DNA of 43,746 nucleotides from the sequence record PQ850621.1; one strand, written 5' to 3'. The translations under genes and the position numbers were made by a program. Position 1 is the first letter of the stretch. Every line of letters starts with the position of its first letter. The stretch comes from Escherichia phage NicoleGrasset_Bas72. The notes under the pieces are model-generated. The model was given only the letters and a program-made list of their open reading frames with translations, ran no database searches and had not been told where the DNA came from. This document shows positions 3,341-41,802 of the stretch, piece by piece.

Positions 3341-4417
3341 ATGCTATTAACTTTAGCGCCACAGGGTTTATCTATGAGCTTACTTACATCCCTAATCAGC
3401 CATCAGATATGGCTGCAACGCACCGCATCCGGTGAAGTGAAAGACCTCACGCCGTTCATTCAGGAGATAAGGGATGAAATCAAACGGCAGGTGCTGTTAT
3501 TCGGTGACGACGGTCGCAGCACTGCGCGACTGAATAAACTGTTACGCGACCTGGAAGAAGCACTAACCGGTATTACGGGTGACTGGCAAACAAAGCTAAC
3601 AGACGACCTTAAGGAACTGGCGGCGTACGAGGCTGAGTGGAACGTAAAGACACTGACCGCCAACGTAGACGCGGAATTTGTTACGCCTACCGCTGAGCAG
3701 GTATGGGCCGCTGCCGAGTTTCAACCATTATCATTGAGCGACAAGCCCGTTGATTTCACCAAGCTGATGTCTGGATGGGGCGAAACGGAAGTAGCACGTC
3801 TTGTAACTGGAGTTAAGATGGGCTTTGTGCAAGGTCAAACCACACGGCAGATTGTTAAGAATGTTGTTGGCGCTGGTGGACTAGCCGACATCTCAGAACG
3901 TAACGCGACTACGGTAATCCGCACCGCGCTGTCCCACGTATCCAACGAGGCCCGTAACGAGACGTACCGCCAGAACGACGACATCATCGAGAAGTACGAG
4001 TGGGTGTCAACGCTTGACAGCCGCACCAGTACGATTTGCAGGGTCAGAGACGGGATGACGTGGGAAATTGGTAAGGGGCCGATGCCCCCAGCCCATCCGA
4101 ACTGCCGGTCGTGCACGGCTCCGGTAATCAGTTCCGAGTTCGACTTCCTCGATAAAGGCGCAAAACGCGCGGCTAAAGGCGCGGAAGGTGGCACTCAGGT
4201 AAGCGCAGACACCACTTACTACGAGTTCCTTAAACAACAACCGGCGTGGTTTCAGGACCAGGCGCTCGGCCCGGTGCGAGGTAAGATTTTCCGTAACAGC
4301 GGTATATCGCCGGAAGAGTTTCGCGTAATATCTGTAGATGGTTTCGGGAATCCGCTCACGCTTAAGCAGATGGCGGAACTCGATAAACGTGTTGCTGATT
4401 ATCTGAAAGGGGAATAA
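3341..4417 (+). CDS. head morphogenesis protein (Mu F / SPP1 gp7-like)
   Basis: 358 aa ORF after portal; canonical position; family assignment from memory of this module, not from a search. Confidence 0.6.
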   Translation: MLLTLAPQGLSMSLLTSLISHQIWLQRTASGEVKDLTPFIQEIRDEIKRQVLLFGDDGRSTARLNKLLRDLEEALTGITGDWQTKLTDDLKELAAYEAEWNVKTLTANVDAEFVTPTAEQVWAAAEFQPLSLSDKPVDFTKLMSGWGETEVARLVTGVKMGFVQGQTTRQIVKNVVGAGGLADISERNATTVIRTALSHVSNEARNETYRQNDDIIEKYEWVSTLDSRTSTICRVRDGMTWEIGKGPMPPAHPNCRSCTAPVISSEFDFLDKGAKRAAKGAEGGTQVSADTTYYEFLKQQPAWFQDQALGPVRGKIFRNSGISPEEFRVISVDGFGNPLTLKQMAELDKRVADYLKGE

Positions 4418-5167: not shown

Positions 5168-5242
5168 ACTATTTATTTACGTATTCCATTTATTCCACTA
5201 AATTGTAAATATTGGAATAAACTATTCGAATAGTTGACTTTT

Positions 5243-5271
5243 CACTGAAAATGTGCTAAGCTCCACCTGAG
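5243..5271 (+). promoter_or_regulatory. promoter candidate TTGACT-N17-TAAGCT overlapped by a 16-bp palindrome
   Basis: -35 TTGACT at 5243-5248, -10 TAAGCT at 5266-5271; palindrome AACTATTCGAATAGTT at 5229-5244 overlaps the -35. Confidence 0.35.
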
Positions 5272-14105: not shown

Positions 14106-14133
14106 AATTATACCCTCAGTAAGTTACTGGTGA

Positions 14134-14162
14134 ATAGTACCCTATTATATTGGGGCGCGCAA
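14134..14162 (-). promoter_or_regulatory. promoter, TTGCGC-N17-TACTAT family
   Basis: On minus strand: TTGCGC, spacer gccccaatataataggg, TACTAT; drives cassette 13779-14105 onward. Confidence 0.55.
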
Positions 14163-14269
14163 GTAGTGTGTTAGAATAAGTTTGCGCCTAGTGTCGCACA
14201 CGAAAAGCGGGTGGTTCCCGCCTGGCGCATTAACCATAACCAGTAACCTCTTAACCAAAGGACTAAAGA

Positions 14270-31245: not shown

Positions 31246-31274
31246 ACTATAATAGCTAACTATTCAGGTGTCAA
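31246..31274 (-). promoter_or_regulatory. sigma70-like promoter TTGACA-N17-TATAGT
   Basis: On minus strand; partly within the 3' end of 31260-31463; upstream of DUF2815-like gene. Confidence 0.55.
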
Positions 31275-37574: not shown

Positions 37575-37603
37575 TTGCACACCCCAACATAATAGGATAC
37601 TAT
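37575..37603 (+). promoter_or_regulatory. promoter, TTGCAC-N17-TACTAT family
   Basis: TTGCAC, spacer accccaacataatagga, TACTAT; about 35 nt upstream of gene at 37638. Confidence 0.55.
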
Positions 37604-38808: not shown

Positions 38809-38958
38809 ATGGTTACTTTGATGATTATGGAATTCGAAAACAGCGCCGCAACTTATCGCGAGATGACTATGGCGCAGGCGTACCGCCTGGCCTCGAACGG
38901 CAACTTCTACAAGGCTCAAATCATCAATGAGTTCGGGGTAATTGACTATGAATTTTAG
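38809..38958 (+). CDS. small hypothetical protein (49 aa)
   Basis: GAGGAGAG SD; downstream of promoter 38749-38777; not in ORF track. Confidence 0.4.
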   Translation: MVTLMIMEFENSAATYREMTMAQAYRLASNGNFYKAQIINEFGVIDYEF

Positions 38959-39220
38959 AAGCTACACCGTGACCGTTGATTTTGAGGGGCTGGAGTTGCC
39001 CCTCCCTAACAACTACAGGTATATAACTCGTGACCGTTTCGGGTTTATTCAGGGGTGGCGGAACAAACCTACAGACACTGAGTTCGGGATGTCTGGCGGC
39101 GAAGAGTTGCCGATCACTTTCGGGCATCAGAGTAGTCACGAAGAGCTTAAAACGGTGATTCGTAAGTATCGCCGCCGCGGTAACACGGGGCTTATAGCAA
39201 TAACAGGCGCTGTTGAATAA
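38948..39220 (+). CDS. hypothetical protein
   Basis: ATG at 38948 overlapping upstream gene end. Confidence 0.45.
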   Translation: MNFRSYTVTVDFEGLELPLPNNYRYITRDRFGFIQGWRNKPTDTEFGMSGGEELPITFGHQSSHEELKTVIRKYRRRGNTGLIAITGAVE

Positions 39221-39237
39221 ACGAGAGGAGAGACAGA

Positions 39238-39651
39238 GTGAACACTAAAAACGAAGTATTCGAGTACCTGATTGACCAGCTACGGCAGCAGGTAAATAAC
39301 AACCAGTGCGAAGACCTGGCGCATGAGGTGCAGTCACTTAAAAACCAGTTACGTGATGCTTCGTCGCAGATTAAGGATTTGCATCTGGCGCTGGTTCGGG
39401 CTACGGGTGACGCGGAAGCGTACAAACTTATCCGCAAACAGGAGCAATCCGGTTGCTGTAAAGAGGATACCCAGGAATGCGAGCATGATTGGGTGCTAGA
39501 TGAAAAAGGGGACTACTTCATTTGCGCTAAATGCGGTAAGCAAGAATCGGAATTGAGCGATTGCCAACACGCTAATACCGTCGGTTTGCGCAAAGGCTTT
39601 GCGCAGGGTTTTACTAAAAAGTGTCTTGATTGCGGGGCTAAACTGAAATGA
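39238..39651 (+). CDS. zinc-finger / coiled-coil protein
   Basis: GTG start with GAGGAGAG SD; C-terminal Cys pairs (CAKCGK...CQH...CLDCG). Confidence 0.5.
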   Translation: MNTKNEVFEYLIDQLRQQVNNNQCEDLAHEVQSLKNQLRDASSQIKDLHLALVRATGDAEAYKLIRKQEQSGCCKEDTQECEHDWVLDEKGDYFICAKCGKQESELSDCQHANTVGLRKGFAQGFTKKCLDCGAKLK

Positions 39652-39851
39652 CCAGCATCTTATTTATCTGGGTACTGTCCGCAGGCCAGATGCACCTGGC
39701 GGCATCAGAAACGTTTTACTCGATGGAGGCGTGCCAGTCAGCGGCACGCGCCGCTGAGAACGCGCACTTTCTGTTTCAGGGTGACAAGCCCAACGATTCA
39801 GAGGTACGCGCTATCTGCTCACCTAAGCGACTTGGAAAACAGGAGAAATAA
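39648..39851 (+). CDS. small protein with N-terminal hydrophobic segment (possible secreted or membrane protein)
   Basis: MTSILFIWVLSAGQMHLAASE hydrophobic N-terminus; overlapping start/stop. Confidence 0.45.
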   Translation: MTSILFIWVLSAGQMHLAASETFYSMEACQSAARAAENAHFLFQGDKPNDSEVRAICSPKRLGKQEK

Positions 39852-39852
39852 C

Positions 39853-40056
39853 ATGGTACAGAGATATTCTAAGTATGGGTCCGACAACCATTTCATTGAC
39901 CGCCACGGGAAGTGGGTTAAGTTTGAGGACTACCAGAATCTTGACCTAAAGCTGTTGGAAGTTGAAGCCGAGTTACAGAAATACAAGGACCAGTTCCCGG
40001 ATTACGTCGAGTGCGCGAACTGTGGGTCAGTTACACATGTGGGAGGGGTGGAGTAA
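39853..40056 (+). CDS. small protein, MVQRY paralog 1
   Basis: AGGAGA SD; first 15 nt identical to start of 40056-40250. Confidence 0.5.
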   Translation: MVQRYSKYGSDNHFIDRHGKWVKFEDYQNLDLKLLEVEAELQKYKDQFPDYVECANCGSVTHVGGVE

Positions 40057-40250
40057 TGGTACAGAGATATGAGGTAAAAGCGTGGGGCCTGCCAGAGCCT
40101 GAGATGGCTGAGTACGCATACGGCGATTATGTAGAATATGACGCTTATCTGAAACTTGAAGCAAAGTTACGTGAATTCGCTAAGCAGGTGCTAGATAGCC
40201 CGTGTGACTGGAAGACAAATGAATTAGCGCGCGAGATTCTTGGAATATGA
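40056..40250 (+). CDS. small protein, MVQRY paralog 2
   Basis: GGGAGGGG SD; ATG overlaps upstream stop; shares YxxYxxLxLKLxE pattern. Confidence 0.5.
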   Translation: MVQRYEVKAWGLPEPEMAEYAYGDYVEYDAYLKLEAKLREFAKQVLDSPCDWKTNELAREILGI

Positions 40251-40540
40251 GCCTTGCAACTGACATCCTGAAACGAAGCGGCCTTGCGCCGCTGTCACCG
40301 AGAGCGAAGACACGTATACACAAGCGTCGCCGTAACGTGCTGTACCCAGAGATACAAGAACGGCGTAAAGCTATCCGCGCCTGTGGATTCCAGAACGGAA
40401 AGGCCGTGAATCTAGGAGAGTTTAAAACACAGGAACGCGCGGCAATCGCTAATCGGTTATTTAATTACTGGAAATCGCTCGGATACGATGATATTCCATC
40501 GAAACCGCAGAGACGACAATACATCTGGCGTCATAAATAA
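40247..40540 (+). CDS. small basic hypothetical protein
   Basis: 97 aa; R/K-rich; overlapping start. Confidence 0.45.
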   Translation: MSLATDILKRSGLAPLSPRAKTRIHKRRRNVLYPEIQERRKAIRACGFQNGKAVNLGEFKTQERAAIANRLFNYWKSLGYDDIPSKPQRRQYIWRHK

Positions 40541-40570
40541 ACCGTTATTAAGATAATTCCTAACCGTGCT

Positions 40571-40610
40571 ATCCTCCAGTTACTGCATACTTAATACGCA
40601 CCTGGAGGAT
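40571..40610 (+). promoter_or_regulatory. RNA hairpin sequestering the holin ribosome-binding site
   Basis: Perfect 9-bp inverted repeat ATCCTCCAG (40571-40579) / CTGGAGGAT (40602-40610); the second arm contains the GGAGGA SD of the TTG-start holin. Confidence 0.45.
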
Positions 40611-40615
40611 TCATC

Positions 40616-40924
40616 TTGGATAAATTTACTGAAACAGTGACGGGGTGGCTTCTCGCTGCCGCATTAGCTGGTGGGGTAATAGGCTTACGGCAACACAAAG
40701 CCACTATTACCGGCCCTGTCGATGCTCTCTGTTTTCTCGCCACTGGCTTTGCGTGCGCCGTATTCGGTGCGCCTCTCGCCGCTCAATGGTTCGGTATCGC
40801 AGGTGAACGCGAAATAGCGGGCCTTGGATTCATCATTGCTATTCTCTGGATGCCAATTTATTCCCGTCTCTCTGGCATTGTCGCCGGAGAATACATCGCA
40901 CGTCGCGGAGGTGGTAATGAATGA
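40616..40924 (+). CDS. putative holin (TTG start)
   Basis: Multiple TM-like hydrophobic segments, charged C-terminus RRGGGNE; GGAGGA SD 7 nt before TTG; directly upstream of endolysin. Confidence 0.55.
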   Translation: MDKFTETVTGWLLAAALAGGVIGLRQHKATITGPVDALCFLATGFACAVFGAPLAAQWFGIAGEREIAGLGFIIAILWMPIYSRLSGIVAGEYIARRGGGNE

Positions 40925-41189
40925 GTTATTCTGGTTCGGTGGTATGCTGGCAATCGGGGGCACATCGCTGTTTAATGTGTATCATCCCAGCGTGGACGAC
41001 GGATTATTTGGCCGGGTGCTCTATATCCTGACTGCCATCGTCTGTGCTGCCGGATGTATCCACCTGTTACAGGGCAGCATGTCACCAACGCTGCCTGAGA
41101 CGTTAATCACATTAGTTGCGCTGCGTCAGATTCGCCAGGTGTGGCTGTCATACGGAGGACATAAGCGTGTCTCGAAATATTTCAGATAA
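40917..41189 (+). CDS. second membrane protein of lysis cassette (holin/antiholin-like)
   Basis: Hydrophobic segments FWFGGMLAIGGTSLF and VLYILTAIVCAAGCIHLL; overlaps both neighbours. Confidence 0.5.
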   Translation: MNELFWFGGMLAIGGTSLFNVYHPSVDDGLFGRVLYILTAIVCAAGCIHLLQGSMSPTLPETLITLVALRQIRQVWLSYGGHKRVSKYFR

Positions 41190-41655
41190 TGGATTGCATT
41201 TTACCGCCGCGTTCGAGGGATTCCGAGGAACTGCGTATCGTGCTACGCCAAATGAGAAGTACATGACTATTGGGTACGGTCATTATGGGCCAGACGTAAC
41301 GCCAGGCAAGACCATCACCCCGGGACAAGGCCTCCTGTTACTGAATCGTGATATGGCTAAGGCCGTAGCTGCGGTTGACGCAGCAGCACACCATTCATTG
41401 ACACAGGCACAGTTCGATGCAGTGTGCGACCTGGTATACAACGCAGGTGCTGGTGTGATTGCTGCTACTACCGGCACGGGTAAGGCACTGCGTTCTGGTG
41501 ATATTGCAACGCTGCGGGCTAAGCTGACACTGTTCATCAACCAGAACGGCAGACCGTTACTTGGACTGCGTCGTCGTACCGCCGGTCGTCTGGCGCTGTT
41601 CGACGGTAAACCGTGGCAAGAGGCAGAGGCTATCGGGCGCGCGGTGAAAGGTTGA
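41167..41655 (+). CDS. endolysin, phage lysozyme (GH24, T4-lysozyme-like)
   Basis: GTG start with GGAGG SD; motifs FEGFRGTAYRATPNEKYMTIGYGH characteristic of GH24 lysozymes. Confidence 0.7.
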   Translation: MSRNISDNGLHFTAAFEGFRGTAYRATPNEKYMTIGYGHYGPDVTPGKTITPGQGLLLLNRDMAKAVAAVDAAAHHSLTQAQFDAVCDLVYNAGAGVIAATTGTGKALRSGDIATLRAKLTLFINQNGRPLLGLRRRTAGRLALFDGKPWQEAEAIGRAVKG

Positions 41656-41719
41656 CACCTGAGACTAATCCGACGATACTTAAATCACCTCCTGTTCCAT
41701 ACCTCTGCTCTCCAGTTTT

Positions 41720-41752
41720 ATCCCGGCCCTGACCCAGCCGGGATTTTTTTTA
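41720..41752 (+). terminator. rho-independent terminator after endolysin
   Basis: CCCGGC cctgaccca GCCGGG then 8 T. Confidence 0.75.
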
Positions 41753-41773
41753 TCTATTTTCTGCAATGACTAG

Positions 41774-41802
41774 TTGACTATTACCTACGACCCTATTATA
41801 TT
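41774..41802 (+). promoter_or_regulatory. sigma70-like promoter TTGACT-N17-TATATT
   Basis: Canonical spacing; follows terminator 41720-41752; precedes 41836. Confidence 0.55.

Follow-up and report, generated by a model that had tools for sequence, protein, structure and literature searches.

The window analyzed here is the whole 43,746-nucleotide (nt) stretch of DNA from Escherichia phage NicoleGrasset_Bas72 (Bas72; sequence record PQ850621.1), the nearly complete genome of a Kagunavirus-type (Guernseyvirinae) siphophage of Escherichia coli. Directly upstream of its first holin gene lies an inverted repeat that places the holin Shine-Dalgarno sequence (SD) in the stem of an RNA hairpin, and this hairpin is probably a selected structure that occludes the SD. 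Its energetics and its comparison with related phages favour a lock against read-through transcripts, with a candidate bypass promoter, over a uniform throttle on holin translation. The parts of the hairpin and the gene that it precedes are as follows.

40566..40568, + strand: 5' half of the extension helix, GUG, which doubles as the TG of a candidate extended -10 element
40571..40579, + strand: 5' arm of the hairpin, ATCCTCCAG, with the anti-SD TCCTCC at 40572-40577; invariant or wobble-compatible in 16 distinct variants
40580..40601, + strand: hairpin loop of 22 nt, TTACTGCATACTTAATACGCAC, with a weak inner 3-bp helix; 5' untranslated region (5' UTR) if an internal promoter is used
40602..40610, + strand: 3' arm of the hairpin, CTGGAGGAT, with the holin SD GGAGGA at 40604-40609
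40612..40614, + strand: 3' half of the extension helix, CAU
40616..40924, + strand: holin gene, 102 amino acids (aa), TTG start, three predicted hydrophobic segments; matches phrog_2359 'holin' (E = 3.7e-29)

The original prediction had a perfect 9-bp repeat setting TCCTCC opposite the holin GGAGGA, and this is borne out: ATCCTCCAG and CTGGAGGAT are 100% complementary over 9 bp and lie 22 nt apart, with a 6-nt spacer (TTCATC) between the SD and the TTG codon. The isolated hairpin has a folding energy of -14.2 kcal/mol (z = -4.6; none of 200 shuffled sequences was equally stable), and in wider sequence contexts its z-score is about -2.3 to -2.5. A 3-bp extension (GUG 40566-68 with CAU 40612-14) brings the energy to -15.6 kcal/mol and ends 1 nt short of the UUG start. 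In all contexts holding the 5' arm the pairing probability of the SD is at least 0.99. Opening the SD costs 10-16 kcal/mol for RNAs that begin at 40541 or 40500, and 4.6-8.2 kcal/mol for an RNA that begins at 40582. A predicted structure of -14 to -16 kcal/mol that keeps at least 99% of the SD paired would come closer to an off-switch than to mild restraint. No excess of perfect 9-bp inverted repeats with loops of 3-30 nt was seen in the window (6, versus 5.1±2.9 in dinucleotide shuffles), so the repeat alone is within chance and the case for it rests on its position and its conservation. An Rfam scan of 39800-41800 gave no match at 40541-40640, even at E ≤ 10.

The TTG codon at 40616-40618 is the first possible start of the 102-aa open reading frame (ORF). 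Its use as the initiation codon, which the original prediction also claimed, is a sound assignment because the phrog_2359 match covers the protein from residue 1 and the Dhillonvirus homologues start with ATG-GAT-AAG (MDK) at the place of TTG-GAT-AAA here. Such starts are a minority (4 of the 52 annotated coding sequences in the related phage Bas71), and this one is conserved across Kagunavirus and in an outgroup, the metagenomic contig L098. The N-terminus reads M-D-K-F-T-E-T-V and holds no dual-start motif; the next start-like codon is a GTG at codon 8, without an SD. The protein is identified as a holin by family annotation together with gene order and context. No Pfam holin family matched it, and no relatives in prophages or genomes were found among 185,579 species genomes.

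Variability within Kagunavirus was assessed in 41-47 distinct sequences drawn from IMG/VR, metagenomes and GenBank, and one stretch of the lysis region stands out.

40581..40640, + strand: hyperconserved block comprising the loop, the SD, the start codon and the first 8 codons; 0.3-0.9% non-majority bases

For comparison, non-majority bases make up 10-25% of the flanking coding DNA of the holin, the second holin and the endolysin, and 14-25% of the intergenic region past the endolysin, where a terminator and good sigma-70 promoters are located. A query of 1,051 nt surrounding the hairpin matched 118 GenBank phage records, nearly all of them Escherichia phages or Kagunavirus and nearly all at 80-95% identity. 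Identity over 40541-40640 is at least 95% in 110 of 120 GenBank records, and the same level is reached over the surrounding 1 kb in 3 of 118. Across about 120 genomes, whose flanks differ by 10-20%, no part of the lysis region is better conserved than this element, which is therefore probably the main cis-control of lysis in Kagunavirus. Comparison of the block with the rest of the genome gave 13-mer matches at chance level only, and the repeated promoter/operator motif AATAGGnTACTATTCA is absent from it.

The 12-bp helix (main plus extension) is 99% paired across 16 distinct variants. Four pairs vary, all of them changed on one side only and mostly to or from G·U. The substitution A40578G, which turns A-U into G·U, occurs in three loop backgrounds (L037, EcoPhCCP1 and TU03), and U40614C in L113 turns G·U into G-C. 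The stem reaches 11-17 bp through loop substitutions in four variants (LSPA1, TU03, the L002 type and SHAK7693), with energies of -20.8 to -25.5 kcal/mol. A double compensatory variant (A40578G + T40603C) was found in none of the GenBank phage records, where the best matches were the wild type with 2 mismatches. Since most of the stem substitutions are compatible with G·U pairs, which are relevant in RNA only, they argue for an RNA structure and not a DNA palindrome.

The same substitutions bear on the idea of an element that acts at the DNA level, the inverted repeat being either incidental or a protein-binding palindrome within a promoter/operator or a junction for module recombination. Such an element would suit the position of the block exactly at the site where a gene for an HslV-like peptidase is gained or lost, the presence of an imperfect palindrome (TTAGGATAATTCCTAA) just upstream, and the fact that all 90 nt of the block are invariant, the loop among them, as a plain hairpin would rarely show. 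We nevertheless consider it very improbable, because most arm substitutions are G·U-compatible transitions that keep RNA pairing and not DNA symmetry, because L098 and other genera retain the hairpin with different sequences, and because the upstream palindrome is missing in L098.

In about half of the related phages an extra gene of the HslV peptidase family ('ATP-dependent protease') is present between the 97-aa ORF that precedes the holin gene and the holin gene itself (at about 40541-40546). The downstream edge of this gene coincides exactly with the 5' edge of the conserved block, which marks a module junction.

The best outgroup for the element is L098, whose holin is 66% identical to that of the window. 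Its hairpin comprises 12 bp with the SD inside (-15.2 kcal/mol), and its loop is unrelated and shorter (9 nt). Over the 12 shared pairs L098 differs from the window at four positions (C40577U, A40578G, G40566A and C40612U), all wobble-compatible. In L098 (positions 1501-2313) there is a single holin-like gene with the endolysin directly after it, and no second holin-like gene.

Homologous holins (34-49% identity overall) were also found in Dhillonvirus (HK578 and SO-1, about 48%), in a divergent Dhillon-like type (L058/L096) and in a KW1E_UTAR type (about 34-40%). The hairpins of the Dhillonvirus, L058 and KW1E types have different sequences; their 3' arms carry a purine run (CUGGGAC, CGGGGA) and end 3-8 nt before the ATG, followed by U6-U8. 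Between L058 and HK578 there is a matched change in both arms of the hairpin. The terminators of HK578, SO-1 and the KW1E type share with the window hairpin its position, the SD-like purine run in the 3' arm and similar flanks (CGTGnTAT... upstream and an MDK/MHK start downstream; compare CGTGcTATCCTCCAGT in the window with CGTGaTATAGTCCCAGT in HK578). They differ from it in having loops of 6-7 nt, U6-U8 tails, weak SDs and ATG starts, whereas the window combines a 22-nt loop and a decayed U-tract with a strong GGAGGA and TTG. In FelixO1-like contigs, which are more distant relatives, the terminator lies farther upstream and the SD is free. Because the homologous hairpins are canonical terminators that abut the start codon, the element would mark the 5' boundary of the lysis cassette and can be read as an old boundary hairpin.

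A terminator or attenuator could accordingly be the primary function, with the hairpin stopping or pausing RNA polymerase that arrives from the upstream genes, holin expression depending on leak-through or on a phage antitermination factor, and SD occlusion arising as a by-product. The scan tool does call the homologous hairpins of L098, HK578 and KW1E intrinsic terminators, with tails of U5-U8 (that of L098 reads UUAUUUUG), and a further terminator ends the cassette on its 3' side. For Kagunavirus itself this account is improbable. An intrinsic terminator is defined by a GC-rich stem, a 3-8-nt loop and a U-rich tail; the window hairpin has a loop of 22 nt and the tail UUCAUCUU, and the scan called neither it nor the LSPA1 hairpin. 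Furthermore, the tail substitutions in Kagunavirus replace U by C and strengthen the extension helix instead, and the upstream gene shows no antiterminator homologue. In the main Kagunavirus form the U-tract would thus have been eroded by U-to-C changes, the change at 40612 adding a G-C pair to the extension helix, and the hairpin appears to have shifted from a terminator (Dhillonvirus, KW1E type and L098) towards a translational SD lock. The definition of a lambda pR'-tR'/Q antitermination unit does not describe this locus. A reading of GATAAT (40552-57) as part of a lambda-like promoter, in which the hairpin would serve as tR', was rejected: there is no -35 element, the hexamer is lost in L098, and there is no Q-like gene.

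The 5' arm overlaps a second candidate signal, a putative internal promoter, with the following elements.

40548..40553, + strand: -35-like TTAAGA, 16 nt upstream of TATCCT, putative; within GTTATTAAGATA, identical in L098
40567..40575, + strand: candidate extended -10 element TGcTATCCT, overlapping the 5' arm; 47th of 87,420 positions on a rough sigma-70 matrix
40582, + strand: predicted transcription start (A40582), the 7th base past the -10 hexamer and 3 nt beyond the 5' arm

The matrix uses hexamer frequencies from the literature and is rough, so that its ranks (among about 88,000 positions per genome) are indicative only; each in its own genome, the corresponding sites rank 9th in KW1E, 24th in HK578 and 47th in the window. 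In KW1E a tool-called promoter (TTGACC-17-TACTAT, 3431-3459) stops exactly where the hairpin begins (3460-3482). In HK578 the element TGaTATAGT overlaps the 5' arm, and similar extended -10 elements occur in two other + strand intergenic regions, one of them right after a terminator. Between the window and L098, GTTATTAAGATA and TGnTATCCT are kept (TGgTATCCT in L098) while the spacer between them has diverged. Within Kagunavirus the unpaired T40570 (position -12) is invariant, and the neighbouring N of TGn is the sole variable base of TGnTATCCT. In the Dhillonvirus and KW1E types the terminator lies so close to the ATG that no promoter would fit in between. All four lineages place the -10 element against or across the 5' arm, and the transcription start predicted from it coincides with the 3' end of that arm or lies shortly beyond, so that RNA made from such a promoter would not include the anti-SD. 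The folding energy of an RNA that begins at 40582 is -3.6 kcal/mol over 54 nt, and this hypothetical leader is ordinary and not unusually open (z = +0.4). A -10 hexamer inside the loop (CATACT, 40586-91) was rejected, as it has neither a -35 element nor a TG and is destroyed in LSPA1. Whether an internal promoter bypasses the hairpin is a question on which we place the chance slightly short of even.

The gap that holds the candidate promoter also contains an imperfect palindrome, TTAAGATAATTCCTAA (window 40548-40563), between the -35-like and the -10-like elements. Many relatives have a perfect version (TTAGGATAATTCCTAA), whereas L098 lacks the palindrome, which could represent a small hairpin or an operator.

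These features can be combined into one explanation. In an RNA that holds both arms the anti-SD TCCTCC would pair with the SD GGAGGA, binding of the 30S subunit would cost about 10-16 kcal/mol, and this pairing, together with the weak UUG codon, would leave the holin essentially untranslated. Such RNAs would be read-through transcripts from the packed upstream genes, initiated at sigma-70-type promoters at about 37.6 and 38.8 kb. Productive holin mRNA would be made from the weak extended -10 promoter (TTAAGA-16-TGcTATCCT), would begin near 40582 and would have an open, highly conserved 34-nt leader without the anti-SD; the invariant block would then correspond to the 5' UTR and early coding region of this mRNA. 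The hairpin would insulate holin dosage from upstream transcription, leaving its level to be set by the weak promoter of the gene, its strong SD and its weak start codon. In the sister lineages the same hairpin with its U-tract should also terminate read-through, and in the main Kagunavirus form, with a decayed U-tract (UUCAUCUU), the translational lock would dominate. We give this whole explanation, an SD lock against read-through plus a bypass promoter, an even chance of being correct.

The comparison suggests transcript-specific repression of the type known for T4 gene e rather than uniform restraint. Long early transcripts of gene e form an inhibitory structure that lowers lysozyme synthesis about 100-fold (PMC3014915), and the 5' strand of this structure houses the late promoters of the gene; soc, 49 and I-TevI follow the same logic (Uzan & Miller review, PMC3014915). 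As in gene e, a lysis gene here follows genes that are expressed earlier, its SD and/or start would be sequestered in long transcripts, which would avoid premature lysis, and a promoter (a candidate one here) is placed so that its transcripts would lack the 5' strand and be translated. The differences are that gene e encodes an endolysin and the target here is the holin of an unrelated siphovirus, that the putative promoter is of the sigma-70 extended -10 type and not a T4 late TATAAATA promoter, and that the hairpin doubles as an intrinsic terminator in sister lineages.

Several observations weigh against a lock with a bypass promoter. With the opening cost taken as that of freeing positions -17 to +3 in a -70..+40 context, the holin site (9.8 kcal/mol) ranks 11th of 68 crude gene calls (median 6.5, standard deviation 2.9), which is high and not extreme. 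The near-invariance of the 22-nt loop within Kagunavirus would be more than is strictly needed by a lock with a promoter, and equally by a throttle. Two singletons, L079 (T40603C) and L023 (C40612A), break one pair each. Covariation is not significant (score 0.089 versus 0.080±0.007, matched by 56 of 500 shuffles) and no double-sided change was seen in the main helix; this would be expected if the SD arm cannot vary, and the case for the structure therefore consists of conservation and one-sided changes. The lineages compared are homologous and hence are not independent trials. As a promoter, the window sequence matches weakly (4/6 + 4/6 + TG, with a spacer of 16 nt, or 15 nt in L098) and was not called by the promoter scan; moreover, TGnTAnnnT is frequent, with 79 copies in the window, and the TG can be explained by the extension helix as well. 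Read-through from upstream is assumed on the basis of the tightly packed same-strand genes (38809-40540) and of the promoter motifs at 37591 and 38765, and a terminator-like site at 39585-39607 might already lower it. The sole RNA-seq paper on a Kagunavirus gives gene-level timing, without transcript ends or mention of the holin, and the published annotations (the Golestan and fBC-Eco01 genome papers) show no promoter or terminator in this gap.

In another account there is no internal promoter, all holin mRNA has both arms, and rare breathing of the hairpin together with the UUG codon gives a low, steady synthesis that sets the time of lysis. The hairpin, the SD and the TTG are all conserved, and by the rule of the promoter tool the 75-nt gap holds no strong promoter, as this account would have it. 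In addition, the start regions of the second holin gene (40921-40935) and the endolysin gene (41161-41180) are local conservation maxima like that of the first holin, which suggests that selection acts on how fast each of the three lysis genes is translated. A precedent is the stem-loop upstream of lambda S (sdi, nt -21 to -7), by which the access of ribosomes to the SD is controlled in a phage where the rate of holin translation sets lysis time (bioRxiv 10.1101/2025.05.14.654169). As in lambda, the hairpin lies just upstream of the holin start, includes the SD and would limit 30S access; in contrast to lambda, where the structure splits initiation between the Met1 antiholin and the Met3 holin, there is a single TTG here and the second holin-like protein has a gene of its own, the stem exceeds that of lambda in length and stability, and neither the sequence nor the protein is homologous. 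A uniform throttle strikes us as rather unlikely, since an SD that is at least 99% paired, at a cost of 10-16 kcal/mol, points to near-silence and not to tuning, as does the factor of about 100 for the comparable structure of T4 gene e (PMC3014915). It also leaves two features unexplained, namely the terminator set against the start codon in sister lineages, with no room for a promoter downstream, and the constant -10-like element at the 5' arm. The restrained holin translation proposed in the original prediction thus holds in so far as a conserved hairpin probably occludes the SD and the TTG is kept, while the energetics and the sister lineages point to a lock and not to uniform restraint.

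Among known systems, T4 gene e comes closest in its logic, and the lambda S stem-loop in the placement of a holin SD in a hairpin. Control by hiding the SD is already known from lambda and T4, and this holin example is undescribed.

The start of the MS2 lysis gene is closed by local RNA structure, the lysis protein is rare, and opening depends on ribosomes that terminate in the overlapping coat gene. In the window, unlike in MS2, the stop codon of the upstream ORF (40538-40540) lies 31 nt before the 5' arm, and translational coupling is therefore unlikely.

The extreme conservation of the block also raises the idea of a translational operator, in which a phage protein or a small RNA would recognise the conserved loop or the leader and so time the opening or closing of the holin ribosome-binding site. 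The invariance of the loop and of the first 8 codons does exceed what the structure requires, and a possible RNA of about 65 nt with the 5' end CACCUCCU could be made just past the endolysin gene. This we regard as extremely improbable: the loop is replaced in L098 and altered in LSPA1 and TU03 with the hairpin kept, there is neither a candidate factor nor an Rfam match, and the region of the candidate small RNA is not conserved. In its boldest form, with the invariant 60-nt block as a timed operator for a trans-acting phage factor (a protein or the CACCUCCU RNA of about 65 nt), it would constitute a post-transcriptional lysis clock in a virulent siphovirus, which is a long shot.

A sigma-70-like sequence (TTGACA-17-GATACT) is located directly after the endolysin stop codon (window 41652-41752), with a canonical terminator about 40 nt beyond. 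This promoter and terminator could encode the small RNA of about 65 nt, whose 5' end, CACCUCCU, is anti-SD-like. The region is not especially conserved, and weak Rfam matches there are driven by the terminator.

Holin dosage sets the time of lysis, which weighs heavily on the fitness of a phage and matters in practice for therapeutic Kagunaviruses, often isolated against pathogenic E. coli. Being small and well defined, the hairpin lends itself to the engineering of phages that lyse faster or more slowly. The cross-genus series appears to lead from a terminator at the holin start to a pure SD lock, apparently with a promoter embedded in the 5' arm. As this kind of mechanism is textbook knowledge from T4 e and lambda S, the conceptual gain is modest.

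The + strand genes of the window run from about 37.6 kb through the lysis genes to the terminase and structural genes, and the replication genes occupy 24.5-37.3 kb on the - strand. The neighbours of the first holin gene are listed below.

40247..40540, + strand: upstream gene, 97 aa, very basic, the last in a tightly packed + strand run; matches phrog_9632 (unknown function)
40917..41189, + strand: second holin-like gene, 90 aa, ATG start, overlapping the end of the first holin gene; matches phrog_2508 'holin' (E = 4.6e-34)
41167..41655, + strand: endolysin gene, GTG start, SD GGAGGA; matches PF00959 Phage_lysozyme (E = 6.5e-27)
41720..41752, + strand: canonical terminator that closes the lysis cassette (ATCCCGGC-9 nt-GCCGGGAT + T8)

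Searches of Pfam, NCBIfam and PDB with the 97-aa upstream protein gave no relative, and the protein is unrelated to the one encoded at this position in HK578. In fBC-Eco01 a terminator is annotated at the place equivalent to 41720..41752.

A repeated motif of about 30 nt (tgcacaccccaaYATAATAGGRTACTATTCA) is present on the + strand at 37591 and 38765 and on the - strand at 14131 and 5136, with weaker copies at 31251, 33934, 33978 and 5229 (+ strand) and 41767 (- strand). It reads as a sigma-70 promoter (-35 TGCACA, -10 TACTAT) with the palindromic core GAATAG-N4-CTATTC and may be a promoter plus operator; PHIRE listed this motif in fBC-Eco01 as a 'phage promoter' (consensus tgAATAGTa-ccTATTat-T). 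Back-to-back with - strand copies of this motif are + strand extended -10 promoters at 5229-5262 (TTGACT-17-TGcTAAGCT) and 14141-14177 (TTGGGG-16-TGtTAGAAT), which apparently restart rightward transcription of the structural genes past small leftward gene inserts. Finally, the record OR594180.1, vB_EcoM_SHAK7693 (L111), is filed under Autographiviridae/Kayfunavirus and named EcoM, yet it has the Kagunavirus lysis block, and its taxonomy label is probably wrong.

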